A stretch of DNA of 64,000 bases from an uncultured Phycisphaerales bacterium (GCA_937868095.1 CALMLO010000006.1:1791-65790); one strand, 5' to 3'. Positions 569 through 44,609 are shown, numbered from the stretch's first letter. Translations and numbers: made by a program. The notes: a model not told the origin generated them from the sequence alone.

Positions 569-783
569 CCTGTTTTCCCTGACAAGCAGGGGCAAAGGGA
601 CTTTTCGACAGTTGTTTTTGTTCAGCCGAAATAGGGAGTGAAAACGCGGCTTTCAGACCGAAGAAATCGTGGCGGTTAATTCAGGCGGCAGAACGAGAAA
701 ATGCAGAAAAGCGTTGAGAAAAAACAAAATATTGTGCAGGAAGCCGGCTCATGACCGGAAATTGAATGCAGCACCGGGGGGTT

Positions 784-6291: not shown

Positions 6292-6337
6292 GATTAGAGA
6301 ACAAACAGAGGAACTCTTCTTGGCACGGGGGACTGTT

Positions 6338-11170: not shown

Positions 11171-11272
11171 CCATTCGAATACGGCAGAGCCGCCGGAGAA
11201 ATGATTGCTCAATCCTCGCTCCGGCGGTATCTTGGGAACAAAAGAACGGTTTCTGAAACAGTGGAGGTTTCT

Positions 11273-20254: not shown

Positions 20255-20788
20255 GTGTCCGGAAACGACGACAGAGTGGAAATTTTTTTGAATTTGTATT
20301 CGTCTTACCAGCCGCGGATATATGGATATATTATGTCCGCTATCGGGGATTGGAACCAAGCGGATGATATTCTTCAGGAAACCATGAGTGTTTTGTGGAA
20401 CAAATTTGATCAGTATGTCATCGGTACTGACTTTCTCTCTTGGGCGTTAAAGGTTGCCCATTTTCAGATTTTATGCCATATCAAAAAACAGAAAATTCAG
20501 AATAAATATTTCAGCCGGCAAACGATAGAAAACATCAGCGAGATAGCGGTTTCCTTGTCAACAGATACAGAAGAACCCCTCAAGGCCCTTCGCAAGTGCG
20601 TCAAAAATCTGCCTGAACGAAGTCAGCACCTGCTTGCCCTGCGTTATGAAGATAACACCACCATTCAGAAGATAGCCCGTCGGCTCCAGCAAAGTGTTCA
20701 TACCCTTTATAAAGAATACCAGAAAATCCATTATCAGCTTTTTCAGTGCATCCGCAGGCAGTTGGAGTGGAACCGAGCTGAACGATGA
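20255..20788 (+). CDS. ECF-type RNA polymerase sigma factor (sigma A of this window)
   Basis: GTG start. Region 2 is ADDILQETMSVLWNKFDQY and region 4 is LPERSQHLLALRYEDNTTIQKIARRL. The stop overlaps the anti-sigma start (ATGA at 20785-20788). From memory it resembles the Rhodopirellula/Verrucomicrobium ECF family; this needs an HMM check. Confidence 0.85.
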   Translation: MSGNDDRVEIFLNLYSSYQPRIYGYIMSAIGDWNQADDILQETMSVLWNKFDQYVIGTDFLSWALKVAHFQILCHIKKQKIQNKYFSRQTIENISEIAVSLSTDTEEPLKALRKCVKNLPERSQHLLALRYEDNTTIQKIARRLQQSVHTLYKEYQKIHYQLFQCIRRQLEWNRAER

Positions 20789-22602
20789 ATGCTGACCAGA
20801 TAAACAGAATGTTTCAGTTATTTGAGGCCGTTCGAGAGGGAATCGTCTCAGAAGAGCAGCTGGCCGAACTGGATCAAATCCTTGCCGAAAACAAAGAGGC
20901 CTGCCATTATTATCTTGAATACTTCAATATGTGTGTTCTTCTCAAAAGCGGCAAAGCTTTCGACCAGACCTTTTCCGCTATACCGGAGATGAATGATTCT
21001 CTTCGTGACATGGGTTTTTGGCAGGCGATGGCCAGAGAAGAGCAGACGGCCCCCGGAATGGAGATTCCCGCTGTCCCCGAAGAGGTTTCCCAAGAGAAGA
21101 TCCTGACGGCAATCAGAACCCCTCAGCCCAAAGTCAGCAAACTCTCTCTTTTTTCCCTGTTTCTGTCCTCTGCTGTCCTGATTTTCATGATTGTATATGC
21201 TCATCTTGTTTCTCTGAAACGGGGGATTGAGGTAGCCACGCTGGCCGACAGTATCGATGCCGTCTGGGATAGGCCGGCCTCGTCTATGCAGGCGGGAAGC
21301 AGACTAACGACAGATCACACTCGTTATCTCCTCCGGGCCGGCCTGGCGAAGTTGTTGTTTGATAACAGTGTGGAGGTATTGATTGAGGCGCCGTCTCAAT
21401 TCAGATTGTTGTCGCAGGACAAGGTTGAATTAGTCTATGGACGAATTTACGCCAAAGTCCCGCCCCAGGCCGTTGGATTTACGATAGATACCTTATCCGC
21501 TCAGATTGTGGATTGGGGCACGGAGTTCGGTGTGGAAGTAGATTACAAAGGAGACACATCCCTTCATGTAATGAAAGGCAAAACTTTGCTGGTTGTGGGG
21601 AATCAATCGAAACAGTCCGCTCTCCCAATCGAAGCCGGCACTGCCAAAAAAGTCTCCGCAACCACCAACACCGTATCCGATGTGCCCTGCGATCATGATC
21701 GGTTCATTCGGGATCTCGATTCCTCAAACAACTTTGTTTGGCGCGGCGAAGTAAAGCGTTGGGATGGTTATGTCAACTGGACCGCGGAGTCCGGGAATTG
21801 GGCCGATGGAGCCAATTGGGATACGGGAATCAAACCGGACGGCTCACGGTGTGTGCGGCTTCGAAAAGGGCCGACCTCTGTTTGTACGTTGAATACAGTC
21901 GAAAAGCCGATTAGTTCCGTCCTGATTGTTTCAAACGGCCAGACGCTTACTATCGAAGAAGGGGGCTATATGGGCTGCGGCTGGTCTCGTTTTGGAGGGT
22001 CCACTGTTTATATGCGCGGCAATGGAACCTGGCTGCTCAATAATGACGATTTATACATTGGGTACCCCGAAAAGGGGGCCGGTGAGTGCGTCTGGACAAT
22101 GTATGATCACAGCAAGATTGAAATTAACGATGACCAGGATGACGGCGAGGTTTTGTACATTTCTCAGGACAATGCAAAAGGAACCCTGAGACTGGTTGGT
22201 TCGAATGTGAGCATCCGCTGCGATCAGCTGTACGTGGGATACCCAAGAAATCCGGGATTTTCACCCGTTGCAGTGCTTGAATATGTGATGGACGCCAACG
22301 GCGCCGGCATCATTCGGGTTGGATATCGAGTCTATCTGGCCGAAGAAACTGCATCATCTTATCTTCTGCTTCGTGCCCCGGAACCTCTTCCTAAAAAAGA
22401 TATTGTCCTGATCGAGATTCTCGGGAATGAAAAAAAGATTCGAGGAAAAGGAGCGTTCACCGCAATGAACGGAGGACCTGCTGCCGAAGGGACTCCTGTT
22501 CAGTTAGGCGGCAACTTGTACACCCTTACCTACCGATATGAAGCCAATGGAGATGGATATCTGAATGATATTGCTTTGGTCTTTCAAACGGATTCGCCTT
22601 AG
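20785..22602 (+). CDS. FecR-like transmembrane anti-sigma factor with an unassigned ~287-aa C-terminal module
   Basis: Translationally coupled to the sigma gene. It has an N-terminal helical anti-sigma segment, one TM helix (LSLFSLFLSSAVLIFMIVYAHLV) and a FecR core (GFTIDTLSAQIVDWGTEFGVEVDYKGDTSLHVMKGKTLL). The C-terminal extension is homologous to the next two proteins. Confidence 0.85.
   Translation: MNADQINRMFQLFEAVREGIVSEEQLAELDQILAENKEACHYYLEYFNMCVLLKSGKAFDQTFSAIPEMNDSLRDMGFWQAMAREEQTAPGMEIPAVPEEVSQEKILTAIRTPQPKVSKLSLFSLFLSSAVLIFMIVYAHLVSLKRGIEVATLADSIDAVWDRPASSMQAGSRLTTDHTRYLLRAGLAKLLFDNSVEVLIEAPSQFRLLSQDKVELVYGRIYAKVPPQAVGFTIDTLSAQIVDWGTEFGVEVDYKGDTSLHVMKGKTLLVVGNQSKQSALPIEAGTAKKVSATTNTVSDVPCDHDRFIRDLDSSNNFVWRGEVKRWDGYVNWTAESGNWADGANWDTGIKPDGSRCVRLRKGPTSVCTLNTVEKPISSVLIVSNGQTLTIEEGGYMGCGWSRFGGSTVYMRGNGTWLLNNDDLYIGYPEKGAGECVWTMYDHSKIEINDDQDDGEVLYISQDNAKGTLRLVGSNVSIRCDQLYVGYPRNPGFSPVAVLEYVMDANGAGIIRVGYRVYLAEETASSYLLLRAPEPLPKKDIVLIEILGNEKKIRGKGAFTAMNGGPAAEGTPVQLGGNLYTLTYRYEANGDGYLNDIALVFQTDSP
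21739..22599 (+). other. shared unassigned module, copy 1 (C-terminus of the anti-sigma)
   Basis: Aligns colinearly with 22887-23699 and 24749-25561. Shared strings include NGQT.xIExGG, LNNDDLYxG, GTLRxVGS, STLEY, LPxKDIVLI, GKGxFxxMNGGPAxEG, LGGNLYxLxY and NDIAxV. Confidence 0.75.
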
Positions 22603-22826
22603 GACCGAAGGTATCTCTTTAGGGGTCGGTCTGAAGAGCGGATGAAATAAAAATGGTGTTTTTGGGAGGATGAGCGGGATGAGAAGAACTTTTTAAGGAG
22701 AGGGTTTTGCTTTCTGTTCACAGGGCGGACAACGCCGACTTGGCTTGAAATGGCCGATTGATTCCCCTCTATTGCAGGAGTCATCAAAGTAAATTCTAAT
22801 CAACTTAATCGGAAAGGGCGTAATTT

Positions 22827-24500
22827 ATGAAAAAGACAAGTCTCATTTTATTGTTCTTCCTTCTTTTAGCCGGTGTGCTGATTGCAGATTTTGAATGGAA
22901 TGTCGAATCCGGTACTTGGAATGAACCATCCAACTGGAAGGGCGGCGTGAAACCCAACGGTACCGCCAATATCAATCTCCGATACAGTCCCGCCTCTGTG
23001 TGCATTCTGAATACAGATGAAGGATTGTTTCCAAACCGCCTGATGATTCAGAACGGTCAGACCTGGAATATTGAAAACGGAGGTCGTGCCGGTTTTACCT
23101 GGGCCAGAATTGGTTATGGCGCCAACGCAGCTGTTAATATGACAGGGAATGCTGTCTATGTACTGAACAATGATGATTTGTATATCGGCGAACTGAACGG
23201 CAATGCCGTCTGGACAATGTATGATACCAGTTCAATTGTCTTGGCGGATCCTTCACGAAATGATGACAACGTGTATGTCGGCAAGGACGGCATGGGAACC
23301 TTGCGGATTGTCGGCTCTAAGGTGACAATCGCTCCCGCTCGAATTGACTTCGGGTGGATTCGAACCACCGATGCCAAACCCGTAAGCACGCTGGAGTATA
23401 TTATGGATGCGGATGGCGCCAGCACGATTGTGACGCAGCGCATCAACAGACTTGGAGATCCAGGGAGCACCAATCATCTGGTACTCAGTACTACAGCACC
23501 TCTTCCGGAAAAGGATATTGTGCTCATCATGGCAACCGGTGGATACAGCACCGGCGGCAAAGGCGTGTTTGATACGATGAACGGCGGACCAGCCGGGGAG
23601 GGTGCTCAAATTGTACTTGGCGGAAACCTATATGCTCTGAGTTATAAATATGATGCCAATCATGACAGCCAAAATAATGATATTGCTCTGGTTTTCATCC
23701 GCTCTGCGAAACACATGGCCTCCAGCCCCATCCCGCCCCATGGAGCAGTACTGACCTCAAGTCCTGTGGAGCTGAGCTGGACGCTTCCTGATCCCAACGA
23801 CGGTGTCAGCAGCATTACCTGTTATGTCTGTTTGGGTATGGAACTGCCGGATCCGAATAGGACGAACATGGACTGTGTGATGCTGCCGCCCAATGTATCA
23901 ACTGTGGCCGTTGATTCGGCCAATTTCCACCGATACGGTATCCAGCCCCTGCCGGATTCCAACGATTTTTACTGGATTGTTGATTGCTTCGATTCCAGCC
24001 CGGCAGTCAGCCCTGAGGAGGGGAAAGGCATAGTGTGGAAATTTACGACGGATTACAATAATGCTCCGTCTGTCGATGCCGGTCCTGACCAGGTGGCTTG
24101 GCTGGGCAAAAGCGGCACCTCCGGCCAGGAAGTGATTACATTAGCGGGCACCTATTCGGATGACGAAAAACCAAATCCTCCAGGCACGTGCACGCTCCAG
24201 TGGACGCAGGTGAGCGGCCCGGCCGACGCAGCAATTGTACCGGATAATGACAAAACGGCCGCAGTGACTATTACCACCGCCGGCGTATATCAGTTTATGC
24301 TTACTGCCGACGACGGCGAAAAACAAGGCAGCGATACGGTTCAGGTAATTGTGGGCTCTGACTCCTGCCACGCTTCGTATCTGAATGGGACAAACTATAA
24401 CTCGAAGGATTTCAATCTTGATTGTACTGTCGATCTGATAGACTTCGCTGATTTTGCGGCAGACTGGCTCGCCTGCACAAACACCTTCGAAGGATGTTAG
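22827..24500 (+). CDS. secreted non-catalytic protein: shared module + FN3-like + PKD/Ig-like + dockerin-like tail
   Basis: Signal peptide MKKTSLILLFFLLLAGVLIA, then the N-terminal module homologous to the anti-sigma C-terminus. It continues with an FN3-like segment (VELSWTLP..FYWIVDC..VWKFTT), a PKD-like segment (PSVDAGPDQVAW..QWTQVSGP) and the tail DFNLDCTVDLIDFADFAADWL. Confidence 0.85.
   Translation: MKKTSLILLFFLLLAGVLIADFEWNVESGTWNEPSNWKGGVKPNGTANINLRYSPASVCILNTDEGLFPNRLMIQNGQTWNIENGGRAGFTWARIGYGANAAVNMTGNAVYVLNNDDLYIGELNGNAVWTMYDTSSIVLADPSRNDDNVYVGKDGMGTLRIVGSKVTIAPARIDFGWIRTTDAKPVSTLEYIMDADGASTIVTQRINRLGDPGSTNHLVLSTTAPLPEKDIVLIMATGGYSTGGKGVFDTMNGGPAGEGAQIVLGGNLYALSYKYDANHDSQNNDIALVFIRSAKHMASSPIPPHGAVLTSSPVELSWTLPDPNDGVSSITCYVCLGMELPDPNRTNMDCVMLPPNVSTVAVDSANFHRYGIQPLPDSNDFYWIVDCFDSSPAVSPEEGKGIVWKFTTDYNNAPSVDAGPDQVAWLGKSGTSGQEVITLAGTYSDDEKPNPPGTCTLQWTQVSGPADAAIVPDNDKTAAVTITTAGVYQFMLTADDGEKQGSDTVQVIVGSDSCHASYLNGTNYNSKDFNLDCTVDLIDFADFAADWLACTNTFEGC
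22887..23699 (+). other. shared unassigned module, copy 2 (N-terminus of a secreted protein)
   Basis: See 21739-22599. Confidence 0.75.
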
Positions 24501-24539
24501 GAAATGAAGTCCAAAGAAGGGGACAAAGGATTGGCGTAT

Positions 24540-24664: not shown

Positions 24665-26977
24665 ATGAAATGGAACAGGCGGCAAATCACGTTTTTTCTG
24701 ACGGCAATACCGGCATGGTTTTCTTTTTTTATCTGCCCTGCCAGCGCAGATACCAGCTGGAATGCAGAAGCCGGCTATTGGGCAGACGACGCAAACTGGA
24801 CAGACCTCAAGCCGGATGGCGAGGATGCCTATATCTATCTCCGCTTCAGCAGTACGTCTGTATGCACCCTGGATACCTTTGAAGGGTTGTTTTCATCTCG
24901 CCTGATTATGCAGAACGGCCAGACGCTGCGCATTGAAGAAGGCGGATACGTCGGTGCAAAGTGGGCACGCCTTGGACGAGGAAGTTCCTCCTATGTCATT
25001 CTCAGCGGCAGCGGCACCTATGTGCTCAATGATGATGATTTGTATTGCGGTCTGGAGGGTGGGCATTGCGAATGGAGAATGTTTGGCACCGCCGCCCTGC
25101 TCCTCAGCGAAGAGGACGGAGACGATGGGGAAGAAGTGTATTTTGGATATAATGGCGGAAGCGCATTGCTTCAGCTGAACGGCTCTGAAGTTACGGTGCA
25201 AGTCGATCAGATTCATTTCAGCAGCAGGGCGGATATGGGGACTCCCTCTTCGACGCTTGAGTTCGTTTTAGATGAAGGGGGAGCGGCACGGATTGTGAGC
25301 AAACGGATTTATCTTGGCGAGAACGGCACATCGCATCTTGTAATTACCGACCCAGGGGTGACCCTCGGGGCAGGAGATATTGTCCTGCTGGAAGCGGCCG
25401 GAAGTGCCGGAATCGGCGGCAAAGGGGTGTTCGATACCCTTAACGGCGGGCCGGCCGACGAGGGCACATATATCACGCTGGGCGGCAATCTTTATGTGCT
25501 CACCTATGCCTATGCGGCCTCCGGAGATTCAATTCAAAATGATATAGCCATGGTTTACCAGGCGGCCCCCTATGCTTTGTATAAAGCCCATTCGCCGATG
25601 CCGGAAGACGGCAGCTGCGTGATTGACAGTCCGACCGTCCTGAAATGGACCAATCCGAAACCGGCAGGGGGAGTGCCGACCTGTACGGTGTATTTGGGGA
25701 CAGTTTCCGACCGGGCGGCTATGGCTCGGGTGACCCTTGAGCCGGCGGCCTCGTCGGTTCAGCTCAACGCAGCCAACTTCCCGACCTATGGCGCCCAGCC
25801 CCTGGCCGATGGGACTACCTATTATTGGATTGTGGATTGTGCCTATGCCGATCCCGCTTTGCCGCCTGAGGCCGGACAAGGCGATGTATGGACATTTCAA
25901 ACATTGCTGTCGCTGCCCAAACAGGATGGATTTGGCGGTCAAGCCGTCGGCGGGGCAGGCGGAGCAGTGGTGACAGTCAGCGATTTCAACACTTTCAAGT
26001 ATTTCGCCACGTCCGAAAACCCCTATATCATTCGCGTTTCAGGTACGATTGATTTCGGATACGGCGTCAAAGTCCAGCCCAAATCCAATAAGACAATCGA
26101 GGGCGCAGACCCCCGCGCCGTGATTATAGGCAATATCGACTTAAGCGGAAGTCAAAACTGCAATAATGTCATCATTCGGAACTTGAACATTACCAATCCC
26201 TATCGGGATCCTGTTACAGATGACGGCTCCGATGGGATTACCGTCTGGGGCGCAACCAATGTGCTTATCACACACTGTACCATCTATGACTGCGGCGATG
26301 GACTCTGCGATATCACGCGGTCCTCAGACAATGTCACGGTGTCGTGGTGTAAATTTTACTACACCGACCCGTCGGATTCCCACCGATTCACCATGATATC
26401 CGGCAACGACCCCTCTTGCCGTCCCCACATCACATTGCATCACAACTGGTGGGCTCAGAACTGCGACCAGCGCATGCCGTCGGGAAGCTGGAGCACCGTC
26501 CACATGTATAACAACTACTTTACCTGCACTGGTAACTACTATTGCTCCAATGTTCGTGACGGCGGTGAGATGTTGAGTGAAAGCAATTATTACCTCAACG
26601 TCAGCAATCCCGTTACCGTGAGCTTGCCTCCCGCATCAGGACAACCCGCCGGCCGTATCAAGACAAGGGACAATGCCTATGTTTCCTGTACCGGGACCAT
26701 TTACCCCGGCCGAGACACGGTATTTACGCCAAGTTACGCCTATACCATCGATGCAGTGGCTGATGTGCCTGCGATTGTTTCCGCCGGCGCCGGCAACCGG
26801 CTTTATGGCGATTTCAATGGGGATGGGAGGGTGGATGCAGAGGATTTGTATTTGTTTTCAGAGTTCTGGCTGGATGACAGCAATCGGGCCGCATTTTATC
26901 AGGATCTCAATGGGGACGGCCGGGTTAACTTCTATGAGTTTGTTTCCTTTGCCGGACATTGGCTTCAGACCTATTGA
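24665..26977 (+). CDS. secreted PL1-family pectate lyase with N-terminal shared module, FN3-like module and double dockerin-like tail
   Basis: Signal peptide, then the shared module and an FN3-like segment (VLKWTNP..TYYWIVDC..VWTFQT). PL1 motifs: KSNKTIEG..VIIRNLNI..DGITVWGATNVLITHCTIYDCGDGLCDIT..VTVSWCKF..ITLHHNWW..DQRMPS..VHMYNNYF. Tail: GDFNGDGRVDAEDL..DLNGDGRVNFYEFVSFAGHWL. Confidence 0.85.
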   Translation: MKWNRRQITFFLTAIPAWFSFFICPASADTSWNAEAGYWADDANWTDLKPDGEDAYIYLRFSSTSVCTLDTFEGLFSSRLIMQNGQTLRIEEGGYVGAKWARLGRGSSSYVILSGSGTYVLNDDDLYCGLEGGHCEWRMFGTAALLLSEEDGDDGEEVYFGYNGGSALLQLNGSEVTVQVDQIHFSSRADMGTPSSTLEFVLDEGGAARIVSKRIYLGENGTSHLVITDPGVTLGAGDIVLLEAAGSAGIGGKGVFDTLNGGPADEGTYITLGGNLYVLTYAYAASGDSIQNDIAMVYQAAPYALYKAHSPMPEDGSCVIDSPTVLKWTNPKPAGGVPTCTVYLGTVSDRAAMARVTLEPAASSVQLNAANFPTYGAQPLADGTTYYWIVDCAYADPALPPEAGQGDVWTFQTLLSLPKQDGFGGQAVGGAGGAVVTVSDFNTFKYFATSENPYIIRVSGTIDFGYGVKVQPKSNKTIEGADPRAVIIGNIDLSGSQNCNNVIIRNLNITNPYRDPVTDDGSDGITVWGATNVLITHCTIYDCGDGLCDITRSSDNVTVSWCKFYYTDPSDSHRFTMISGNDPSCRPHITLHHNWWAQNCDQRMPSGSWSTVHMYNNYFTCTGNYYCSNVRDGGEMLSESNYYLNVSNPVTVSLPPASGQPAGRIKTRDNAYVSCTGTIYPGRDTVFTPSYAYTIDAVADVPAIVSAGAGNRLYGDFNGDGRVDAEDLYLFSEFWLDDSNRAAFYQDLNGDGRVNFYEFVSFAGHWLQTY
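24749..25561 (+). other. shared unassigned module, copy 3 (N-terminus of the pectate lyase)
   Basis: See 21739-22599. Confidence 0.75.
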
Positions 26978-27625: not shown

Positions 27626-27716
27626 CCCTGGCTTTTTCCGCTGCAAATCTTATTAGGCCATTTTATACATCCGCGAAATATCTGCTTTTATTGGCCAAAC
27701 AAGGGACATCTTCTGT

Positions 27717-27735
27717 CCGAAAATATTATTTTCGG
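27717..27735 (+). promoter_or_regulatory. perfect 9-1-9 palindrome upstream of the second ECF sigma gene (candidate operator or small hairpin)
   Basis: CCGAAAATA-T-TATTTTCGG lies 104 nt upstream of ATG 27839 and directly abuts the TTCTGTCC octamer at 27711-27718. Confidence 0.35.
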
Positions 27736-27838
27736 GCAAGTTTTGTTGAAGATTTTGGAAAAATAAAGGGAAAAACAAGGTCCTTTTGACAAGTACTTTA
27801 TAGAGGATGAATAAAAATAAATCGAACAGGGTTCACAG

Positions 27839-28381
27839 ATGTGGGCGAATTCAGATAAAAATCAGCTCGATAGAACCAAATCCTTCATGCGGCTGGTATT
27901 TGCAAACGAAAGGCGAATTTATGCCTATATATATCTTTTAATCCCCATTCAATCAGAAGCAGAAGACATTTTCCAGGACACATTGTCTGTAATGTGGAGC
28001 AAGTATGACCAGTTCGAGCGGGAACGGGATTTTGGAGCGTGGGGAATCGGAATTGCTTCCAATCTGATAAAAAATTACCGAAGGAAAAGGAAAAACCAAT
28101 CTTTTTTTCTTGAAGAGGACCTTGAGAACCTTTTGGAAAAAGAGGCCCGGCAATCCATAAAATCTCTGGATGCCCGTATCGAGGCCTTACGTCAGTGTCT
28201 TTCTCATCTCGATCCGCTTGACCGGAAAATCATCCATATGAGGTATGAAGAGGATATTGCGGTAAAAGCAATTGCTGAAAAGATTCGCACCACAATCAAG
28301 GCAATTTATGTGAAATTGGCCCGTTCCCACGACCAGCTGCTTCGCTGCATTCGAAGAACGTTAGCCGAACAAGGAAACTGA
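27839..28381 (+). CDS. ECF-type RNA polymerase sigma factor (sigma B of this window)
   Basis: Aligns along its whole length with 20255-20788 (RIYAYIY..AEDIFQDTLSVMWSKYDQF..LDPLDRKIIHMRYEEDIAVKAIAEKI). Confidence 0.85.
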   Translation: MWANSDKNQLDRTKSFMRLVFANERRIYAYIYLLIPIQSEAEDIFQDTLSVMWSKYDQFERERDFGAWGIGIASNLIKNYRRKRKNQSFFLEEDLENLLEKEARQSIKSLDARIEALRQCLSHLDPLDRKIIHMRYEEDIAVKAIAEKIRTTIKAIYVKLARSHDQLLRCIRRTLAEQGN

Positions 28382-28383
28382 GC

Positions 28384-30069
28384 ATGGACGACCGGAAGAA
28401 ATCTCAATGGTTATGTGAGCGAATCCTTCAATTTCGGGACGGCCAACTTCCCGAGGACGAGTCCGCCGACCTGAAAGCCGTATTGCGCAATGATCCCCAG
28501 GCAAGGCGGTATTACATTGAAATTGTTGTTATGCATGCGATTTTCCAGGGTCGTAAATCCCCTCTTGTGAAGACGAATGTTTATCTGCCTTCAGAAGAAG
28601 TGATGGATAATGAATTGTGGGAAGCATTGGCGAAGGAAGAGAATTCAGCAGAGCCGATAGAAGTGATCAGACAGCAATCGGAATCGGAAAAAGCCGCATC
28701 TGCCGTTGTCACCGTTCGGGAAACCCGCGTAAAAAATACGCCGAGCAAAACACCGCTTTATGTTCTTTTGGCCTCTGCTGCGGCCATCTTTTTTGTCATA
28801 CTTTCCATCCGTTATTCTCCCTTTAAATCCGGCACGGCAGTGGCTGTTTTATCAGACAGTTTAGAGGCTGTCTGGAGTGATTCCGTCCTCCGAGAGAAAG
28901 GGGCTCCTCTTTTAACAGGGTCCAAACCCTATATCCTTCAGCAGGGATATGCTCAGCTTGTGTTTAACAATCATGCCCAGGTGACCATTCAGGCGCCGGC
29001 ATCGTTTCGCCTGCTTGATGAGGACGTGCTCAAACTGAATTTCGGACAGGTTTACGCCATCGTTCCGCCTTCTGCCTATGGATTTCAGATTTGCACCAAA
29101 GAATCAAAAATTATTGATTTAGGCACAGAATTTGGGATTGAACAGACTCTCAGCGGCGATACGGAAATTCATGTCCTCCGAGGAAAAGTGGTCCTGGTTT
29201 CAAAAGCAAAAGAACGCAAGATCAATTTGAATCTTTCGGCAGGGAACGCCTGCAAACTGATTGCCGCCACTGGACAAACACAGCAGATTGAGTGCCGCGA
29301 AGGCAGATTTGTAAGACATATCAATTCAGATTTTCGATGGGCCTGGAAGGGACAGCCGCTTGACTTAGCGGATTTGGCGGGCGGCGGCAGCGGCTTCGGA
29401 GGCGGAGACAGCCGGAAAGGCATCGATTTGTCAACCGGCAGAATGCAGCCCCGCGCAAACCAGGGATATGATAAGCCGGCGGCGGCTGGATTTCGACCGG
29501 TTCAGGATTTGCCCTTCATAGACGGAGTTTTTGTCCCGAACGGCGAGTTCGGCCCCGCAATAGTCAGCTCACAGGGGCATCAGTTTGACTTTCCCAAAAC
29601 CAGTGGGGCCTATTGGTCTGATATTACCCCCAATCCGTACATCGCCAAAAAGAATCCCCAGACAAATGAAATCGAGTATGTCTCCACGCTGCTGGAAGTG
29701 GAGGGCAAGCCGGACGAACCCATTCCGCCTCGGCTTCTGGTGCATCCGAATGCCGGCATTACATTTGATCTGGACAAAATCCGGCAGGCATACCCATTCT
29801 TTGAACTGAAATCTTTCCGGGCTGTTTGCGGCCTGCCGCAGATCTTGGATTTTCGAAAACGGTCGGAATTCTGGGTGCTGCTGGATGGACAATGTGTTTT
29901 CCACTGCCAGTCCGATTATCAAAATCTCAGCAGCAGAAAAGTCGAAATTCCAATCGAGCCGCATGCTCGATTCTTGACCTTAGCCGCCACCGACGGCGGA
30001 GATGGAACACATTACGACTGGTGCGTGTTTGCCCAGCCGGTTTTATTGCTTGAAAGAAGTTCCTTGTAA
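28384..30069 (+). CDS. FecR-like transmembrane anti-sigma factor with a C-terminal NPCBM-like module
   Basis: There is a 2-nt gap after the sigma gene. It has one TM helix (LYVLLASAAAIFFVILSI) and a FecR core (GFQICTKESKIIDLGTEFGIEQTLSGDTEIHVLRGKVVLV). The C-terminus HPNAGITFDLDKI..FWVLLDGQCVF..RFLTLAATDGGDGTHYDWCVFAQPVLL follows the NPCBM-type pattern; this is by eye and not verified. Confidence 0.8.
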   Translation: MDDRKKSQWLCERILQFRDGQLPEDESADLKAVLRNDPQARRYYIEIVVMHAIFQGRKSPLVKTNVYLPSEEVMDNELWEALAKEENSAEPIEVIRQQSESEKAASAVVTVRETRVKNTPSKTPLYVLLASAAAIFFVILSIRYSPFKSGTAVAVLSDSLEAVWSDSVLREKGAPLLTGSKPYILQQGYAQLVFNNHAQVTIQAPASFRLLDEDVLKLNFGQVYAIVPPSAYGFQICTKESKIIDLGTEFGIEQTLSGDTEIHVLRGKVVLVSKAKERKINLNLSAGNACKLIAATGQTQQIECREGRFVRHINSDFRWAWKGQPLDLADLAGGGSGFGGGDSRKGIDLSTGRMQPRANQGYDKPAAAGFRPVQDLPFIDGVFVPNGEFGPAIVSSQGHQFDFPKTSGAYWSDITPNPYIAKKNPQTNEIEYVSTLLEVEGKPDEPIPPRLLVHPNAGITFDLDKIRQAYPFFELKSFRAVCGLPQILDFRKRSEFWVLLDGQCVFHCQSDYQNLSSRKVEIPIEPHARFLTLAATDGGDGTHYDWCVFAQPVLLLERSSL

Positions 30070-30098
30070 ACATTTACTTTTTTCGGGAGGATTTTAAG

Positions 30099-32111
30099 AT
30101 GAAAAGAATAGTTCTGTTTTTAATGGGAAGTGCTGTTTTGGCCTCATGTGCCTATGCGGCCTTGTTTGAAGATTTTGAGAACTACAAATTGGGCCTTGTG
30201 GGAGATGTGACAAAGGGCAAGTGGGTAGGGACTGACGCAGTAATTGTAATGAACAATCTCAATAAAGCGTTAGATGCCTCCGACGCGGTGCCTGTCTATG
30301 CTTCATTGGGGAGTTTTTCTATTCCGGATTCAGATACGCAGACAACGGTCTTCTTCCGCTTTTATGTGGCCACCGGCAGTGAAAACTCTCCAATCGGAGT
30401 TGCCGATGAGGGAGATACAAGTCCGGACAGCTATGGGGATATGGACGCTTATGTCCAATGCATCAGCGGCAATCTGACCGCTCGAAATGGTTCAAGCAGT
30501 CCAACCATCATTTCGAAAATCAGCCCCGGCTGGTACAATGTTTGGCTGGTGATTAACAACAATGCCAACATTTATGATGTTTATGTGAATCAGGGCACCG
30601 CTGATGCAGCGGAAGCAGACAAGAAGGCGACGAACTTTGCCTTCCGCACGCCTTCGACAACCTCCATCGTATCATTTGCGAATGTATATGGCTCCGGTCA
30701 TTTATTTGACGACATCTATATTACACCCGGCCTGAGTCTGGTCAATCCGCCAAGACAGGTACCTCCGACCCCCGCTGCCATTGAAGGATTTTTTATGACA
30801 AATGGGTCTGGTCTGGAGTATTCAACAGTGATCAATGGCCATTTTACTCTTCCGGGTTCTTCCAGCACGGGCACGATAGGCGTTCCGGGTTGGTACAGCA
30901 ATCAGACGGTTTGGAGCTCAGACAGCGGTACACGCAGCGGCGACAGCTCGGATGGTGATGGTTGGCATTTCAGCGAAAAAGTCACGGATGGGCCGATTTG
31001 GAATGTGACCCAGACCAAAATGGTGCCGGGACAAAGTTATACCTTTTTTGCCGATGCGCACGGACGATGGGATTGCAACAGGGCCTATCTGTCTGTAGTT
31101 ATTGGCGAAGATCCCAACACTGGCTTAGGGGATCCGAATCTCTCCTTGGCCACCGCAGAACATGTGATTGGCGGCAATGGGATTTGGTATCACGATCTTT
31201 TTGTAAGTTATACCGCAACGCAGGCAGATGCCGGCAAGTGCATCGGCCTCAAACTGGAAGGAGGCAGTACTACCAAGATCGACAACAGCTGGATTCGGTA
31301 TGACAATATTCGATTGTATGATGGATTGGCTGTAGTGAAACATGGCCCTCTCAATCCAGTACCGGCAGACAGCAGTTGGGATCTCGCTCCAGGGGCGTTT
31401 GTCCTGTCGTGGACGCCAAGCAATGATCCGAACTGTACCGGTCAGCGGCTGTATTATTACATCGGGACCGGAGGAATGTTTAATCTTTCTGCTTATAATG
31501 CCGTCAGTCCTGTTTCTTTATCTCCATCAGCGGATTTCTACAACATCGGCACACTCGCTTTTGATCAATATGTCCTCTGGCGCGTGGATACAGTAATCGA
31601 TGGAGCCGCATATACGGGCCCGACGTGGTTTTTCGTAACGCAGACGGCGGACTTCCCTCCTATTGTCGATGCGGGCTACAGCTGCATTACTTGGCTGGCC
31701 AATCTTCCGCAAACTCTCGCCGGCACCGTCGATGACCTCGGCGAGGGAGATGTCGCTGATGCCGATGTGGTTTGGTCGATTGCCTCCGCTCCATCAGGAG
31801 CAAATGCCAGTGTTGTCAAAACATCGACCAATCCGTTCCAGCCGACTGCGGTTTTTACAACGGATACAGCGGGAACCTATACAATTCAGCTGACTGCCTC
31901 CGATACAGGAGGTTCCCAGGGCTCCCAGACTTCGTTTGACACTTTGACAGTCCGCGTAGCCGCAGATGCCTGTGCCGCTCAGCAGATGGTTCAGGCGGGC
32001 TACAAGGCGGCTGATTATGATCGGAATTGTGTGGTGGACCTGGCGGATCTGTCTGCCTTTGCCGGCCAGTGGCTGGATGATATCCGCTTGACGGAAGCCG
32101 TTCCGTATTAA
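30099..32111 (+). CDS. secreted non-catalytic multimodular protein (jelly-roll modules, FN3-like, PKD/Ig-like, dockerin-like tail), paralogue 1
   Basis: GGGAGG RBS and a signal peptide. From about nt 30785 it is colinear with the next gene ([56 protein letters not shown]..). Tail: [21 protein letters not shown]. Confidence 0.85.
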   Translation: MKRIVLFLMGSAVLASCAYAALFEDFENYKLGLVGDVTKGKWVGTDAVIVMNNLNKALDASDAVPVYASLGSFSIPDSDTQTTVFFRFYVATGSENSPIGVADEGDTSPDSYGDMDAYVQCISGNLTARNGSSSPTIISKISPGWYNVWLVINNNANIYDVYVNQGTADAAEADKKATNFAFRTPSTTSIVSFANVYGSGHLFDDIYITPGLSLVNPPRQVPPTPAAIEGFFMTNGSGLEYSTVINGHFTLPGSSSTGTIGVPGWYSNQTVWSSDSGTRSGDSSDGDGWHFSEKVTDGPIWNVTQTKMVPGQSYTFFADAHGRWDCNRAYLSVVIGEDPNTGLGDPNLSLATAEHVIGGNGIWYHDLFVSYTATQADAGKCIGLKLEGGSTTKIDNSWIRYDNIRLYDGLAVVKHGPLNPVPADSSWDLAPGAFVLSWTPSNDPNCTGQRLYYYIGTGGMFNLSAYNAVSPVSLSPSADFYNIGTLAFDQYVLWRVDTVIDGAAYTGPTWFFVTQTADFPPIVDAGYSCITWLANLPQTLAGTVDDLGEGDVADADVVWSIASAPSGANASVVKTSTNPFQPTAVFTTDTAGTYTIQLTASDTGGSQGSQTSFDTLTVRVAADACAAQQMVQAGYKAADYDRNCVVDLADLSAFAGQWLDDIRLTEAVPY

Positions 32112-32259
32112 CTCTTTGGATAGTTTGAATGAACAAGAGTTTTCCCCTTCTGTTCCGGGGTCGGGCATATACCCGGCCCTGGAACGGGAAAACAAAGAAA
32201 GCCGGCAGAGATGATTTGCTGGATGAAACCGTGCGAAAGATTTTCAGAAAGGTAGATTT

Positions 32260-34371
32260 ATGAAAAGGGTTTTGCTGGTTCTTGCGCTTATGTTTAGTAC
32301 GGGGGCGGCGGTTGCCGACTTTACCGCAAATGACAATCCGCTGCACTTGTGGAATCTGAACGGCAGCGGTACGGACAATGGTTCGGGCCTGATTGATATC
32401 GTTACCCTGGCCAATGGAGCACGATATGACCGCTGGATGAATGGGATAGATTTCTCGGCGGATGTCACGGCCTATGCGGCCCCTGAACCGGCCAACCTCC
32501 CGATGTCTGTCCTTCTCGGAGGGGGGGCTTTTACGATTGAGGCGATTGTTTGCCCGGCCTTGACACCGGGAGCTGAGTCAAGCCACATGGAAATTGTCTC
32601 CGCAGAAGATGGTTCTACCCGCGCTTTTCAGTTTCGAATTAATGACGGCGGAACAACTCTTCGTTTTCAAACGCTTACCAGCGGCTTCACGACAACCGTT
32701 GCTTATGATGTTCCTATCACCTATGAAGCGGGAAAATGGTACCACGCGGCTGTAACGTACAGCGGGGTACCGAATGTGGCTGGCAATCTGAAAATATACT
32801 GGACGCCGCTGGGAGAAGCATCTCTGATTGAAGTAACGGCGGCCTCTCCCCAAACCATGACCGGAACAATTAACCCCGACCGTTATGCCGAATTTTGTAT
32901 TGGGAACGAACTGCGGGCCAGCCCCGGCGAAAACTGGGAAGGCGTAATCGATGCCGTGCGCATCACCGAAGCCGAACGCTCTCCGGCGGCCATGCTCGCA
33001 TCGATTGTTCCCCCGCTGACACCTCCGGCGGAAACCCCCATTACCGGCATGTTCTTCGAAAACGGCACCGGGGAAGAATATACAACAGTGATCAACGGCA
33101 ACTTTACCCTCCCGGGCACCGCCAGCAAAGGCACGACAGGTGTGCCGGGTTGGTACGGCAGCCAGACGGCTTGGAGTTCAGACACCGGTACGCGCAGCGG
33201 TGACAGCTCGGATGGCGATAATTGGAACTTCAGCGAAAAAATTGCCGATGGGCCGATTTGGAATGTTACACAAACTCGAATGGTGGAAGGCCGCAGTTAT
33301 ACCTTCCTGGCCGACGTGCAGGGACGCTGGGACTGCAACAGGGTCACAATGTCGGTCATTGCAGGGGAAGATCCGAACACCGGTCTGGGGGACCCCAATA
33401 TTCCTCTTGCAAGTGTTACCCATGTGATCGGCGGCAACGGAGTTTGGTATCACGATCTCTTTGTGAGTTATACAGCAACAGAAGCGGATGCCGGCAAATT
33501 CATTGGGGTCAAGTTTGAAGGAGGCAGTACCACCAATGTGAATAACAGCTGGATTCGGTATGACAATGTCCGAATGGTGGATGGTTCTATTACTATCAAG
33601 CATGGACCGCTCGATCCGATTCCGGCGGATGAAGCAGTCGAGGTGGCTCCTGGCTCTTTTTCGCTCCATTGGACACCGAGCAATGACCCGAATAAGGTCG
33701 CTCAGAATTTGTATTATTATATTGGAACGGGCAAATCGTTCGACATTGCTGCCTATAGGGCGGTTAGTCCGGTTCCCCTCTCTGCCTCGGCGAATTCCTG
33801 CAGCATTGGCACTGTCGGTTACGATCAATATGTCCTCTGGCGTGTGGATACGGTAATTGATGGGGCCGCTTATACCGGTCCGACGTGGTATTTTATGATG
33901 CAGACAACGGACTTTCCGCCGACGGTGGATGCGGGCTACAGCTACATTACATGGCTGGGCAATCTGCCGCAGCTGCTGGCCGGAACGGTGGACGATGGCG
34001 GTGAAGGCGATGTAGCCGATGCCGATGTCGTTTGGTCGATTATCTCCGGCCCTTCGGGAGCAGCCGCCACTGTTGTCAAAACCTCGACCGATCCGCTCCA
34101 GCCGACCGCGATGTTTACAACGGACAAAGCCGGCGACTATGTGATTGAGCTGACAGCCGCCGATACCAACGGTTCACAGGGCGTCCAGTCGGCTTCGGAC
34201 AGATTGACGGTCCGCGTAGCCGCCGACGCCTGTGCTGCCCAGCAGATGGTTCAGGCGGGCTACAATGCGGCTGATTATGATCGGAATTGTGTGGTGGATC
34301 TGGCGGATTTGTCCGCCTTTGCCCGCCAGTGGCTGGACGATATCCGATTAAGTTCCTCGGTTCCTTATTAA
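32260..34371 (+). CDS. secreted non-catalytic multimodular protein with LamG-like N-terminus, paralogue 2
   Basis: Signal peptide [19 protein letters not shown]. The N-terminal LamG-like module (..[26 protein letters not shown]) is unrelated to the N-terminus of paralogue 1. The remainder is homologous to 30099-32111 and has the same dockerin-like tail. Confidence 0.85.
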
Positions 34372-34481: not shown

Positions 34482-35297
34482 ATGACTCGGAAATGTCTAT
34501 TGCGGTCGAAAGGATTCACATTAATTGAGCTTCTGGTTGTGATTGCAATTATCGCCTTGCTTTTGGCGGTACTTATTCCCTCGTTGCGAAAAGCCAGAGA
34601 AAGCGCCAAGTCCTTGACCTGTCGGAGCAATCTGAAGCAAATGACGTTGGCCTTCAGCGTTTACAGCCAGGAAAATGACGGCCGGATGTTTTCTTTGGCT
34701 TATGGAGCCGATTACTGGTTCCGGAAGATTGCACCTTTTCTGGGGGACGCCTATTTTCAGCAGAACCCCACCGTGGACTATACAGGAGTCATGCAGGTGA
34801 GCATTTGTCCTTCTACGAAGATTCAGACCTCCAGAGAAAATGGAACCTACAATACCACCTGGCATTATCAGGACGGCATTGGTAGCTACGGCATCAACTG
34901 CTGGCTTCTCTCGGACGTCCCGGATTCAAGCGGAAAAACCTGGTATGAAAAGTGGGGCGGGGGCATCGGCCAGACAACCGGCCGTTATTTCGAACGCTAT
35001 TCGATTGCCCGTTCTGATGCCGGCCTGCTGGCAGACGCCTTTCGCATGGATGTCTGGCCGATGCCGGATCAGGAAATCCAGCTTCGCTTATCTACCAGCA
35101 AAAGCGAATTAAAGGAGCCAGGTGGATTGCCTCACAACCCCAACTATTTCATGAGACGCTATATGGCGGACCGCCATGGCATGGCCGTCAATGTCGGCTT
35201 TGTAGGGGGTTATGTGGAAAAAGTTAATTTGGTGGATCTCGGCTTGATTAGTTGGAGCAAACGCTCTTTTCCCCGCCCGGATTTAATTATTCCGTAA
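34482..35297 (+). CDS. prepilin-type N-terminal cleavage/methylation protein with a DUF1559-like C-terminus
   Basis: AAGGAG RBS at 34471-34476. The N-terminus is [26 protein letters not shown] and the C-terminal motif is [20 protein letters not shown]. The start was chosen inside ORF 34287-35297. Confidence 0.85.
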
Positions 35298-35318
35298 CCC
35301 TTTTCGCTCACCGTTCGA

Positions 35319-35354
35319 AAGCCGTCTCTGATTCGAGGCGGCTTTTTTCTTTTC
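35319..35354 (+). terminator. rho-independent terminator
   Basis: 10-bp stem AAGCCGTCTC / GAGGCGGCTT (one G-U pair) with a 6-nt loop, then TTTTTTCTTTTC. Confidence 0.7.
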
Positions 35355-35378: not shown

Positions 35379-35418
35379 CAAAGTCGTCACAAGAAGACCT
35401 TGTCTGTCTTGTATGTCT

Positions 35419-35506
35419 GGAGAGGTGTCGGAGTGGCTGATCGAGCAGCCTTGGAAAGGCTGTGTAGGGCTTGTCTCTACCGCGGGTTCGAATCCCGCCC
35501 TCTCCG
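35419..35506 (+). tRNA. tRNA-Ser (anticodon GGA)
   Basis: Manual fold: acceptor GGAGAGG/CCTCTCC, 3-bp D stem, anticodon stem CAGCC/GGCTG with loop TTGGAAA, long variable arm (GTAGGG..CTCTAC), T arm GCGGG-TTCGAAT-CCCGC and discriminator G. CCA is not encoded. Confidence 0.9.
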
Positions 35507-35609
35507 GTTTTGATTCTAAGTTCTTTGATATTCGGCATTTATTTTTCATTTCCCTTCGGTTTGTTTGTTCAGAAACCCCCGTATTTCGCCGGCAAAAAGG
35601 AGTTTGGCC

Positions 35610-41008: not shown

Positions 41009-41482
41009 CTAAAGAGCGAGAATATAGTAAAAGGCATTTCCATTCTGGCGAAAAATGCCTGTGGATAAATTGCCGTCATCAATTTTGGCGTCAATCTCTT
41101 CCATAAAGCCGGCATCTCGCGTCATATCCGAACCATCGAAACTGACACCGATGCAGGAGGTAAATCCGCTGGCGGTTTGGTCGGCTGTCTGCCAATAGCC
41201 GCCGATAGGGGTTTTTTTAATCCATTTCTTGGCTTCAATATATTCATCCCAGCCGGCGGGAATCTGGCCGGGGTCGGCACTTTCCAGGTATTCTCCTGTC
41301 TTAAACCGGTAATACTCTGCTGCCGACACAAATGTTCTCAAGCACGACACAAACGAGTTCTGCCGGGCCTCTGTGCTGGCGTTGTTGACGGAAATAATCA
41401 CCACCGCTGCCAGCAGCCCCAGAATCAAAACCACAATCAGAACTTCGACCAGGGTAAAACCGTCTCTGAATCGGGAGTTCAT
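41009..41482 (-). CDS. type II secretion/type IV pilin-like pseudopilin
   Basis: N-terminus RDGFTLVEVLIVVLILGLLAAVVI (prepilin cleavage/methylation motif). GGAGAG RBS, with the start at 41482 inside ORF 41009-41524. Confidence 0.8.
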   Translation of the reverse strand: MNSRFRDGFTLVEVLIVVLILGLLAAVVIISVNNASTEARQNSFVSCLRTFVSAAEYYRFKTGEYLESADPGQIPAGWDEYIEAKKWIKKTPIGGYWQTADQTASGFTSCIGVSFDGSDMTRDAGFMEEIDAKIDDGNLSTGIFRQNGNAFYYILAL

Positions 41483-41592
41483 AGGCGTCTCTCCAAATTC
41501 AAATTTTTCCGTTTTGGGACACAATCCTGTTTAAATAATAAAAAAAGATAGGCCGCTTTCCAAATCGGGCAGGTTTTAATATCGCTTCTGTC

Positions 41593-44472: not shown

Positions 44473-44609
44473 TGTTTCCCCCTTTTTTAGATTGCCTATT
44501 TTAACTATATCTTTTTGGGTTTGACGTTTCTGACACAATAATCTGCTTTTTTATTCACAGCCGCCGCGACCGTGTGTATAATAATACATAAAGCAAAGGA
44601 AGCAAACCG

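Follow-up and report, generated by a model that had tools for sequence, protein, structure and literature searches.

The window analyzed here, a stretch of 64,000 nucleotides (nt) from an uncultured Phycisphaerales bacterium (GCA_937868095.1 CALMLO010000006.1:1791-65790; positions are counted from its first letter), contains a plus-strand locus, cassette B, in which genes for a sigma factor and an anti-sigma factor are followed by genes for secreted proteins. The first gene, sigB (27839-28381), encodes a sigma factor of the extracytoplasmic function (ECF) class, 180 amino acids (aa) long, belonging to the Rhodopirellula/Verrucomicrobium family. After a gap of 2 nt comes antiB (28384-30069), which encodes a 561-aa single-pass FecR-type anti-sigma factor with a predicted CBM51/NPCBM C-terminal domain. 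A gap of 29 nt separates antiB from B1 (30099-32111), encoding a secreted multi-domain protein of 670 aa in which no catalytic module was detected, and 148 nt further on lies B2 (32260-34371), encoding a secreted 703-aa paralog of B1 with a Laminin_G_3 head; both secreted proteins begin with a signal peptide. A pilin-like gene (34482-35297, plus strand) follows, encoding a 271-aa protein with a prepilin N-methylation motif and a DUF1559 domain (Pfam N_methyl, 31.4 bits; SBP_bac_10, 23.7 bits).

The left boundary is set by a plus-strand terminator-like hairpin (27714-27738; 11-pair stem, T-rich tail) that closes an upstream deaminase gene, the open reading frame (ORF) of which ends at 27625 and an ortholog of which in a relative carries dCMP_cyt_deam. 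On the right, a strong intrinsic terminator on the plus strand (35317-35346; 12-pair stem with 6 GC pairs, then a T-run) lies beyond the pilin-like gene, and a similar pilin-like gene comes after the cassette at the related loci L001, L003-L005, L086, and L088. Cassette B is thus sigB, antiB, B1, B2, and the pilin-like gene, up to the terminator. An earlier reading of this DNA from its sequence alone (the sequence-only reading) had given the gene order, the coordinates, and the 2-nt and 29-nt gaps exactly as found here, together with a cassette A on the same strand, but it ended the cassette at 34371, short of the pilin-like gene and the terminator that also belong to it. RNA contigs from sludge metatranscriptomes bridge the junctions of sigB with antiB (28359-28507) and of antiB with B1 (30051-30333); coverage of B1, B2, and the pilin-like gene in the same metatranscriptomes is sparse.

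Turning to the anti-sigma factor, an AlphaFold2 model of antiB built from a 112-sequence alignment (predicted local distance difference test score, pLDDT, 89.1) starts at the N-terminus with a helical bundle (4-56, 76-88) and passes through a disordered linker and a transmembrane helix to an all-beta periplasmic part. Residues 1-95 (28384-28668, plus strand), with modeled helices at 4-18, 24-36, 38-56, and 76-88, are assigned as a putative cytoplasmic sigma-binding domain, and the N-terminus gives a weak profile match to the RsiW anti-sigma domain (E 0.054). The transmembrane helix is placed at residues 121-146 (28744-28821, plus strand; helix 123-144 in the model), over the hydrophobic stretch PLYVLLASAAAIFFVILSI. 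Beyond it, residues 151-325 (28834-29358, plus strand) form a predicted periplasmic FecR beta-domain, identified by Pfam (residues 187-269, 31.2 bits against a cut-off of 24) and by Foldseek, which matched this part in the PDB to the Parabacteroides anti-sigma factor BDI_1681 (4m0h/4m0n) and to the C-terminal cell-surface signaling domain of PupR (6ovk); direct sequence searches of solved structures gave nothing useful for the FecR part or for the sensor domain of cassette A. By its predicted domain content, antiB is a FecR-type anti-sigma factor. Within its DLGTEFG motif, Gly247-Thr248 (29122-29127, plus strand) is a candidate self-cleavage site, and both residues are invariant in 112/112 antiB homologs. 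FecR and FoxR undergo self-cleavage at a Gly-Thr bond ahead of Prc/RseP processing (PMC9249621), and the bond in antiB would be the equivalent site.

The remainder of the protein, residues 326-561 (29359-30066, plus strand), is assigned as a CBM51/NPCBM-like beta-sandwich and putative sensor. Pfam NPCBM (PF08305) matched residues 453-554 at 28.0 bits in the whole protein and at 29.8 bits when residues 326-561 were searched (cut-off 23.9), and most antiB homologs have a precomputed match to the same family. The profile of the antiB family found 7js4 (E 3e-7) and 2vmh/2vmg (E 3e-4) in the PDB, and the three highest-ranking Foldseek matches of the model were 2vmg/2vmh/2vmi, the CBM51 of a Clostridium perfringens GH95 enzyme (E 3.4e-7; TM score 0.65 on the target), with the CBM51 modules of ZmpB and GH98 next. 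Pfam, PDB profile, and AlphaFold2/Foldseek thus agree on a predicted CBM51/NPCBM fold, as the sequence-only reading had suspected by eye, and the motifs it quoted (GTEFGxE...HVxxGKxxLV, HPNAGITFDL, FWVLLDGQCVF, and RFLTLAATDGGDGTHYDWCVFAQPVLL) are all present in the translations. Some 125 extra conserved residues (326-450) precede the CBM51 match, and the C-terminal domain has four hypervariable loops (353-369, 413-440, 485-495, and 508-520). Solved members of CBM51 bind galactose, N-acetylglucosamine (GlcNAc), or blood-group glycans. The possibility that the antiB sensor is a hidden paralog of a B1/B2 module was rejected (hhalign probability 0.3%).

Cassette A, which lies on the same strand, offers an internal comparison. 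Its genes are sigA (20255-20788), antiA (20785-22602), A1 (22827-24500), and A2 (24665-26977). Both sigma factors are of the ECF type and score above the cut-off of TIGR02989 (for sigB, 130.5 bits against 124.55, with Pfam Sigma70_r2 at 43.5 bits and r4_2 at 29.7 bits), and in BLASTP they share 30% identity across 165 aa (E 4e-28), in keeping with the earlier claim that they align. Both anti-sigma factors carry FecR by Pfam; they are 34% identical over the first ~312 aa only (E 3e-55), a span that takes in the N-terminal part, the transmembrane segment, and the FecR core, and BLASTP found nothing alignable past residue ~324, so that the shared framework and the unrelated C-termini were both read correctly from the sequence. 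Downstream, the C-terminus of A1 is ~29-30% identical to those of B1 and B2 (E 1e-16 to 1e-18), and A2 combines Pfam Pectate_lyase_4 with Dockerin_1 (33.4 bits). The similarities between the cassettes are far beyond chance. The C-terminal ~270 residues of antiA, for which no Pfam match or PDB sequence match was obtained, share 46% identity with the heads at the N-termini of A1 and A2 alike. The sensor of cassette A is, by this sequence relationship, a paralog of the targeting module of its presumed targets.

As a separate observation on cassette A, three independent sludge metatranscriptomes represent A1 (22585-24529) far more than any other gene of the region, with contig word depths of 27-35, 12, and 8-10 in the three runs and of 0-4 for its neighbors. 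The A1 RNA contigs begin near 22585-22618, in the antiA-A1 gap, and one stops near 24529, which suggests that A1 has its own strong transcript.

The two secreted proteins of cassette B are assembled from similar modules behind different heads: B1 and B2 share 73% identity over their C-terminal 459 aa, and their N-termini are unrelated (BLASTP). The B1 head (residues 21-222; 30159-30764, plus strand) is modeled as an all-beta sandwich of no assigned family (pLDDT ~65-77), gave no Pfam match at E<=10, and is kept in the relatives P0122, P0126, and P0130. The B2 head (residues 80-243; 32497-32988, plus strand) is Laminin_G_3 (PF13385; 45.2 bits against a cut-off of 27.6). Next comes a central module, at residues 224-411 of B1 (30768-31331, plus strand) and 257-444 of B2 (33028-33591, plus strand), which we describe as a remote HpiC1-like beta-sandwich of carbohydrate-binding-module (CBM) type. 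Neither B1 nor B2 gave a direct Pfam match to HpiC1-like (PF22825) at E<=10. An exhaustive search with the central-module profile found 635 cluster representatives in which the module occupies variable positions in 1-5 copies and co-occurs with GH123, GDSL lipase, LamG, PA14, and F5/8-C domains; PF22825 is carried by 7/9 sampled matches and by the relatives P0130 and P0132, and weak PDB matches of the profile were to Stig cyclases (E ~0.01). Judged by these contexts, the central module behaves as an accessory CBM-type module.

The FN3-like module that follows (B1 residues 414-520, 31338-31658; B2, 33598-33918; plus strand) is a modeled beta-sandwich in B1 (pLDDT 80-88) that matches FN3 arrays in Foldseek and contains a conserved WRVDT motif. 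A PKD-like module comes after it in both proteins. That of B1 (residues 521-621; 31659-31961, plus strand) is modeled at pLDDT ~90 and matched PKD at E 5e-4 and 20.5 bits, under the Pfam cut-off of 23.5; the Pfam match in B2 is likewise weak, and the homologous region of A1 reaches 39.1 bits for K319L-like_PKD. Both proteins then end in a short tail (B1 residues 622-670, 31962-32108; B2, 34222-34368; plus strand), described for B1 as one dockerin-like EF-hand loop, with D, D, N, D, and D at the loop positions, plus a helix and an invariant Cys625/Cys644 clamp. The tails of B1, B2, and A1 gave no Dockerin_1 (PF00404) match in Pfam even at E<=10 with the tails isolated, and the "dockerin" family call was rejected for them: each has a single dockerin-like repeat, as against the two tandem ~22-residue repeats of type I dockerins. 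Of the module architecture given by the sequence-only reading, the FN3-like and weak PKD-like segments and the LamG head of B2 therefore stand, and the dockerin tag gives way to a single Cys-clamped repeat. A lipoprotein assignment for B1 was also dropped, the LASC motif at residues 14-17 not being kept in orthologs.

Similar tails occur elsewhere in the window. The ORF at 70-405, listed with its own start at 70, is probably a longer gene's 3' end, the start of that gene lying before the window, and it closes with a lone Cys-clamped, dockerin-like repeat of the same kind, EYDADGDCRITLADFASFAARWL. The tail is thus a tag found generally on secreted proteins of this genome and is not confined to the cassettes. 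ORFs overlapping by 50 nt at 766-6291 and 6242-11170 encode a pair of giant, paralogous enzymes, both secreted, of 1841 and 1642 aa. Both contain GH43, CBM6/35, LamG, FN3, and MAM domains, to which one adds GH5 and a ricin-type lectin and the other GH30. They end in near-identical two-repeat, dockerin-like modules with a Cys pair that went unreported as Dockerin_1 by Pfam at E<=0.001, and the tail hidden Markov model (HMM) cross-matches these modules.

Searches of B1 and B2 with Pfam, NCBIfam, PDB sequence profiles, and Foldseek found no catalytic family, which agrees with the earlier view that neither protein has a recognizable catalytic module. The best Foldseek matches of B1 are a MAM-Ig-FN structure, FN3 arrays, tandem CBM22 modules, and the Epf adhesin, a list that is indicative only. 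The B1 family is small, at 12-13 proteins in a word-indexed search, even with a profile.

The second secreted protein varies between strains. Locus L001, where the anti-sigma factor is 64% identical to antiB, is without B2 and without a cassette A immediately upstream. Locus L086, at ~98% nucleotide identity to the window, has the A2 ortholog, deaminase, sigB, antiB, and B1 as in the window, and at 7001-11531, in the place of B2, two tandem 721-aa paralogs that are 99.4% identical to each other and have a different head; compared with the B2 of the window, their 3' part is ~98% identical, the middle 88%, and the head unrelated. Four metagenomes of different studies contain the B2 arrangement of the window. 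These differences mark the B2 slot as a hot spot of duplication and head replacement. At L005 (11897-14440), a B1-type head (66-261) and a B2-type LamG head (268-490) stand in tandem within one 847-aa protein, an arrangement which hints that the two head types work together. Separately, a low-depth soil-metagenome contig (run X10) joins 33569 to 33813, skipping 243 nt (81 in-frame codons) of B2 around the boundary between the central and FN3-like modules; with 12 mismatches, this contig may represent a diverged paralog rather than a deletion variant.

Cassette B is far from isolated. We counted at least 388 full-length FecR+NPCBM homologs of antiB, and at least 586 FecR+NPCBM loci in species-representative genomes. 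The best 80 loci are nearly all labeled Phycisphaerae, Anaerohalosphaeraceae, Sedimentisphaerales, or just Planctomycetota, together with a few metagenome-assembled genomes labeled Pirellulales and one labeled Balneolaceae, and a single chromosome supplies at least 8 of them. A cultured Anaerohalosphaeraceae strain, "U12dextr", is among the carriers, with several cassettes of this type. For a closer survey, we retrieved 85 loci, called their ORFs, and searched these with HMMs derived from the parts of the window; downstream genes were counted at the 68 loci with 3 kb or more of DNA downstream. Immediately upstream of the anti-sigma gene stands an ECF sigma gene in 81/87 cases, and 60/68 loci encode one or more co-directional proteins built on the FN3-like/PKD/tail stalk. 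A small (<=340 aa) pilin-like or PEP-CTERM protein is present at 42/68 (pilin-like at 22, PEP-CTERM at 31), and the HpiC1-like module at only 5/68. The layout is a widespread plan, of which the B1 family is a rare output variant. On sequence grounds, cassette B appears to be a member of a very large paralogous family of ECF/FecR switches in anaerobic Phycisphaerae (Anaerohalosphaeraceae, Sedimentisphaerales). At L003 (4648-15930), L020, L062, and L063, two FecR-NPCBM cassettes stand side by side or convergent within 10 kb, an arrangement that matches the A-B tandem of the window. In the literature, we found no description of NPCBM-bearing anti-sigma factors or of cassette B, and no coverage of the ECF systems of Sedimentisphaerales or Anaerohalosphaeraceae.

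This survey bears on the wider claim of the sequence-only reading, namely that the cassettes form a modular family of circuits with a swapped sensor. The gene order is indeed conserved among relatives. The two tandem paralogs, present in the window, are not a fixed feature: B2 varies between strains, and at least two such proteins occur at 26/68 loci. Nor is the NPCBM form a special swap, being the commonest sensor type found. What was called swapping is borne out by three anti-sigma C-terminal types (CBM51, the cassette A domain, and Laminin_G_3) on one N-terminal framework (~24-34% identity, GTEFG/GTDFS motif). The cassette A type occurs in antiA and, at L062, in an anti-sigma factor of 559 aa, and at L087 a FecR+Laminin_G_3 anti-sigma factor is followed by LamG output proteins. 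These comparisons indicate that sensor domains are exchanged within one sigma/anti-sigma family; sensor and outputs, however, change together, rather than the sensor changing against fixed outputs. As a whole, the earlier interpretation is partly supported: much of it holds, yet it is incomplete.

How sensors and outputs vary was followed within the CBM51-bearing family. Among paralogs, identity is ~22-24% in the sigma-binding domain, ~41% in FecR, ~48% in the CBM51 core, and ~11% in the four variable loops; in the orthologs P0002-P0004, the loops are 59-72% identical, conserved as much as the core. The loops have accordingly diversified between paralogs and been conserved within orthologs, as would be expected if they determine specificity. 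In a comparison of 79 cassettes (3081 pairs), downstream proteins were similar in 1 of the 11 pairs with a sigma-binding domain at >=40% and loops at <20% identity, and in 19 of the 33 pairs with the opposite combination (sigma-binding domain <30%, loops >=35%); where both were low (2577 pairs) or both high (23 pairs), the proportion was 0% and 96%, respectively. Sigma factor identity correlates with that of the sigma-binding domain (Spearman 0.42) and not with that of the sensor (0.02) or the outputs (-0.10). The extremes are instructive: L021 and L042 have sigma-binding domains of 23% identity, loops of 92%, and an output similarity of 0.96, and L021 and L076 have 73%, 2%, and 0. Likewise, P0005 joins an antiB-like sensor to a sigma-binding domain just 20% identical to that of antiB, in a cassette whose pilin-like protein is near-orthologous (E 1e-98) and whose heads are of the B2 type, and P0006 shows the reverse pattern, with different outputs. 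The pair analysis thus points to two units of evolution that meet within the anti-sigma gene, one made up of sigma factor and sigma-binding domain and the other of sensor and outputs. A global rank correlation of anti-sigma regions against downstream similarity was discarded as swamped by zero values, the discordant-pair table alone being informative.

Around cassette B lie plant-cell-wall enzyme genes: GH43, GH5, GH30, GH95, PL1, a BD-FAE esterase, and GH78. Between the terminator and the esterase/GH78 genes is a tRNA-Ser(GGA) gene (35418-35507), the conserved 3' arm of which explains why metagenomic depth is very high and loose ends are numerous at 35475-35506. Further along, a second, short (171 aa) prepilin-motif protein is encoded on the minus strand at 41009-41524, adjoining a GH31 enzyme with a PA14 insert (41593-44538, minus strand); no sigma/anti-sigma pair stands beside these genes at 41009-44538.

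Taken together, we lean, with a confidence that slightly outweighs doubt, towards reading cassette B as a periplasmic glycan-sensing ECF switch that drives lectin-like surface proteins. At rest, sigB would be held by the cytoplasmic N-terminal domain of antiB. A glycan fragment entering the periplasm would bind the variable loops of the CBM51-like domain, and binding would expose the FecR part, with its Gly247-Thr248 motif, to periplasmic and then intramembrane proteolysis, following the Prc/RseP logic of FecR. The freed sigB would transcribe its own operon. Its products would be lectin-like surface proteins in which a variable jelly-roll head (the beta-sandwich of B1, the LamG domain of B2) is carried on a constant stalk of HpiC1-like CBM-type, FN3-like, and PKD-like modules, with the single Ca-loop, dockerin-like tail probably serving attachment; the pilin-like DUF1559 protein would be made together with B1 and B2. 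These outputs would capture the sensed polysaccharide for the neighboring plant-cell-wall enzymes (PL1, GH43, GH95, GH5, GH30, the BD-FAE esterase, and GH78). We infer the regulation, the glycan binding, and the scaffold function alike. Support comes from the anatomy of the cassette, the sigma family, the CBM51 fold, the conserved plan, the divergence of the loops among paralogs, the co-variation of outputs with the sensor, the absence of any recognized catalytic family in B1 and B2, the operon bounds and junction-bridging RNA, the plant-cell-wall enzyme surroundings, and the sister cassettes with a sensor paralogous to an output head (cassette A and L087), which follow the same logic as the RsgI sensors (PMC4711584, PMC6852018).

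Several points weigh against this reading. The NPCBM match spans only profile positions 44-136 of 137, and a glycan ligand for antiB is predicted from the fold. Because the sensor of cassette B is unlike the modules of B1 and B2, the argument that the same module senses and binds is borrowed from cassette A and L087. The model of B1 is of moderate confidence (pLDDT 64.6) and shallow because its family has only 12-13 proteins. Cassette B transcripts are scarce in the sludge metatranscriptomes, and the contigs may partly reflect DNA carry-over. A shared ECF-type promoter motif was not found upstream of 83 sigma genes, nor between the intergenic regions of the window, by k-mer enrichment and bipartite 5-mer/4-mer pairs compared with shuffles across the regions upstream of sigma genes and the B1-B2 and B2-pilin gaps; AT-richness alone emerged, the shared 7-mers GGATGAA and GGGAAAA(A)C were not above chance and were rejected, and a generic sigma-70 scan gave fewer sites than in shuffles. 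B2 and the pilin-like gene are therefore assigned to the regulon from gene order, terminator position, and conservation. Lastly, the sensor is physically nearer to the outputs, so that linkage may partly explain their co-variation, and the pairs compared are not independent events.

That co-variation, and the FecR type of antiB, also fit a different circuit, one we consider unlikely, in which the CBM51-like domain senses a partner in the manner of FecA and FecR. The real receptor would then be B1, B2, or the pilin-like protein, bound by the sensor in place of free glycan; it would relay its own ligand binding to the anti-sigma factor, so that the downstream proteins would act as both inputs and outputs. 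In FecR-type proteins, it is normally the C-terminal end that touches a receptor encoded alongside (PMC9249621), and PupR (6ovk) is among the fold matches of antiB. The downstream proteins co-vary with the sensor loops, the P0005 cassette keeps its near-orthologous pilin-like protein (E 1e-98) and B2-type heads despite the 20% identity of its sigma-binding domain, and the cassette B sensor is unrelated to the output modules. Against this, linkage alone could yield the co-variation, and the fold is that of a carbohydrate-binding module, the solved relatives of which bind sugars. No TonB-dependent transducer or signaling domain was found in the window genes scanned, and with the sensors of cassette A and L087 being paralogous to an output head, recognition of a shared ligand is the simpler account.

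The outputs themselves admit other interpretations. If B1 and B2 were enzymes of an unrecognized family (for example, with the ConA-like/LamG head or the HpiC1-like module working as glycanase, lyase, or transglycosylase), cassette B would be an ordinary regulator-plus-enzyme locus like cassette A, where a pectate lyase holds the equivalent position. The ConA-like jelly rolls include glucanases (as the Pfam name of PF13385 indicates), the nearest solved sequence relatives of the central module are the Stig/HpiC1 cyclases (E ~0.01), and the B1 head fits no family. We nevertheless think this very improbable: Pfam, NCBIfam, PDB profile, and Foldseek all returned no catalytic family, the top Foldseek matches are adhesion or binding arrays, and the central module looks accessory, in variable positions and up to 5 copies beside true catalytic domains (GH123, GDSL). 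We give equally little credence to a role in remodeling the surface for adhesion or floc formation and not for feeding, in which the cassette would sense the cell's own envelope or matrix glycan and produce adhesins or a pilus-associated layer. Such a role would suit an organism of sludge and digester communities whose outputs resemble adhesins; many cassettes include PEP-CTERM or pilin-like proteins, typical of surface display, and in other genomes many are not beside enzymes. Yet the cassettes of the window, L001, and L086 sit in conserved order among plant-cell-wall enzymes, GH2, GH88, and BNR genes come after other cassettes, and where sigma/anti-sigma sets with carbohydrate sensors are known in multiple copies, they serve nutrition (PMC4711584, PMC7671368).

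The glycan-sensing switch that we prefer would have consequences beyond this locus. In digesters, sludge, and sediments, polysaccharides are commonly degraded by anaerobic Phycisphaerae, and the cassette family may be a main route of polysaccharide sensing in related bacteria. A FecR-type anti-sigma factor with a fused CBM51 sensor would need no outer-membrane transducer, and at least 586 loci are available for comparison. Since the NCBI name of the FecR+NPCBM homologs is merely "NPCBM/NEW2 domain-containing protein", their regulatory role is invisible in annotation. So many sigma/anti-sigma pairs with natural ligand-binding domains, as a stock of orthogonal parts, could serve the discovery of glycan specificities and the design of synthetic sensors, and the two-module pattern, with the strain-variable head slot, bears on the origin of new regulatory specificities.

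Possible, though on balance doubtful, is the broader idea that Phycisphaerae have their own equivalent of polysaccharide utilization loci (PULs) made from different parts: hundreds of private sensor-fused switches driving matched lectins and evolving by recombination and duplication. Here a CBM51, LamG, or cassette A domain fused to the FecR core may replace the TonB transducer, and each switch may drive swappable-head lectins together with a pilin-like or PEP-CTERM anchor. New specificities may come from recombination within the anti-sigma gene, carrying "sensor + outputs" as a block from one chassis of sigma factor and sigma-binding domain to another; a further source may be the B2 slot, where copies are duplicated and heads exchanged even among strains sharing ~98% identity.

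Among known systems, cassette B recalls SigI/RsgI of Clostridium (Acetivibrio) thermocellum, in which there are likewise many paralogous sigma/anti-sigma pairs per genome (PMC4711584, PMC6852018, PMC10328401). In both, a single-pass anti-sigma factor bears an outer C-terminal carbohydrate-binding module that differs by paralog, the sensor modules are often of the same types as those in the regulated proteins, the outputs have tails of a dockerin or dockerin-like type, and the signal passes (for cassette B, putatively) by regulated proteolysis. The differences are equally clear: the sigma factor is ECF (TIGR02989) and not sigma-I, antiB has a FecR core, with Pfam finding only FecR and NPCBM and no RsgI domain, the host is a diderm planctomycete, so that the sensor would face the periplasm and not the medium, and the outputs appear non-catalytic and include a pilin-like protein. 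CBM51 is not known to be among the RsgI sensor types. With an ECF sigma factor and no RsgI domains, cassette B would work like SigI/RsgI without being a member of that system.

FecI/FecR/FecA signaling, including PupR and FoxR (PMC9249621, PMC11637429), shares the regulatory core: an ECF sigma gene stands beside an anti-sigma gene with a FecR domain, and the anti-sigma protein has an N-terminal domain for sigma binding (putative in antiB), a single transmembrane helix, and a periplasmic FecR beta-domain with the conserved Gly-Thr; the fold of antiB is also similar to that of the PupR periplasmic domain. TonB receptor, Plug, and STN domains gave no match in the genes of cassettes A and B or in the other window genes scanned, and unlike the Fec system, cassette B has no TonB-dependent transducer or signaling-domain partner; in antiB, the receptor-contacting C-terminal subdomain of FecR would be replaced by the CBM51 fold, and the outputs would be secreted lectin-like proteins and not an iron transporter. 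Signaling in Bacteroidetes PULs (ECF10/ECF240; PMC7826278, PMC7671368) is similar in its many FecI/FecR-type pairs, each tied to a glycan-related cluster, and in its expansion through duplication of whole clusters. Those PULs sense through a SusC-like outer-membrane transporter, whereas here the anti-sigma factor itself carries a directly fused carbohydrate-binding fold, and no SusC-like transporter with a signaling domain was found in the window cassettes or annotated relatives.

The sensor itself shares its predicted fold, and the motifs HxN...FDL, F.V..DG, and DGGD...D, with the CBM51 of the C. perfringens GH95, GH98, and ZmpB proteins (2vmg, 2vng, 7js4), where the module is an appendage of secreted glycosidases and peptidases and not, as in antiB, the C-terminus of a membrane anti-sigma factor. 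In its proposed mode of action, cassette B resembles RsiV, a direct lysozyme receptor in which the extracytoplasmic domain of an ECF anti-sigma factor binds the inducer and triggers regulated proteolysis (PMC4183432). The fold and the class of ligand differ, and in place of the single system per genome that RsiV represents, cassette B belongs to a large paralogous family.

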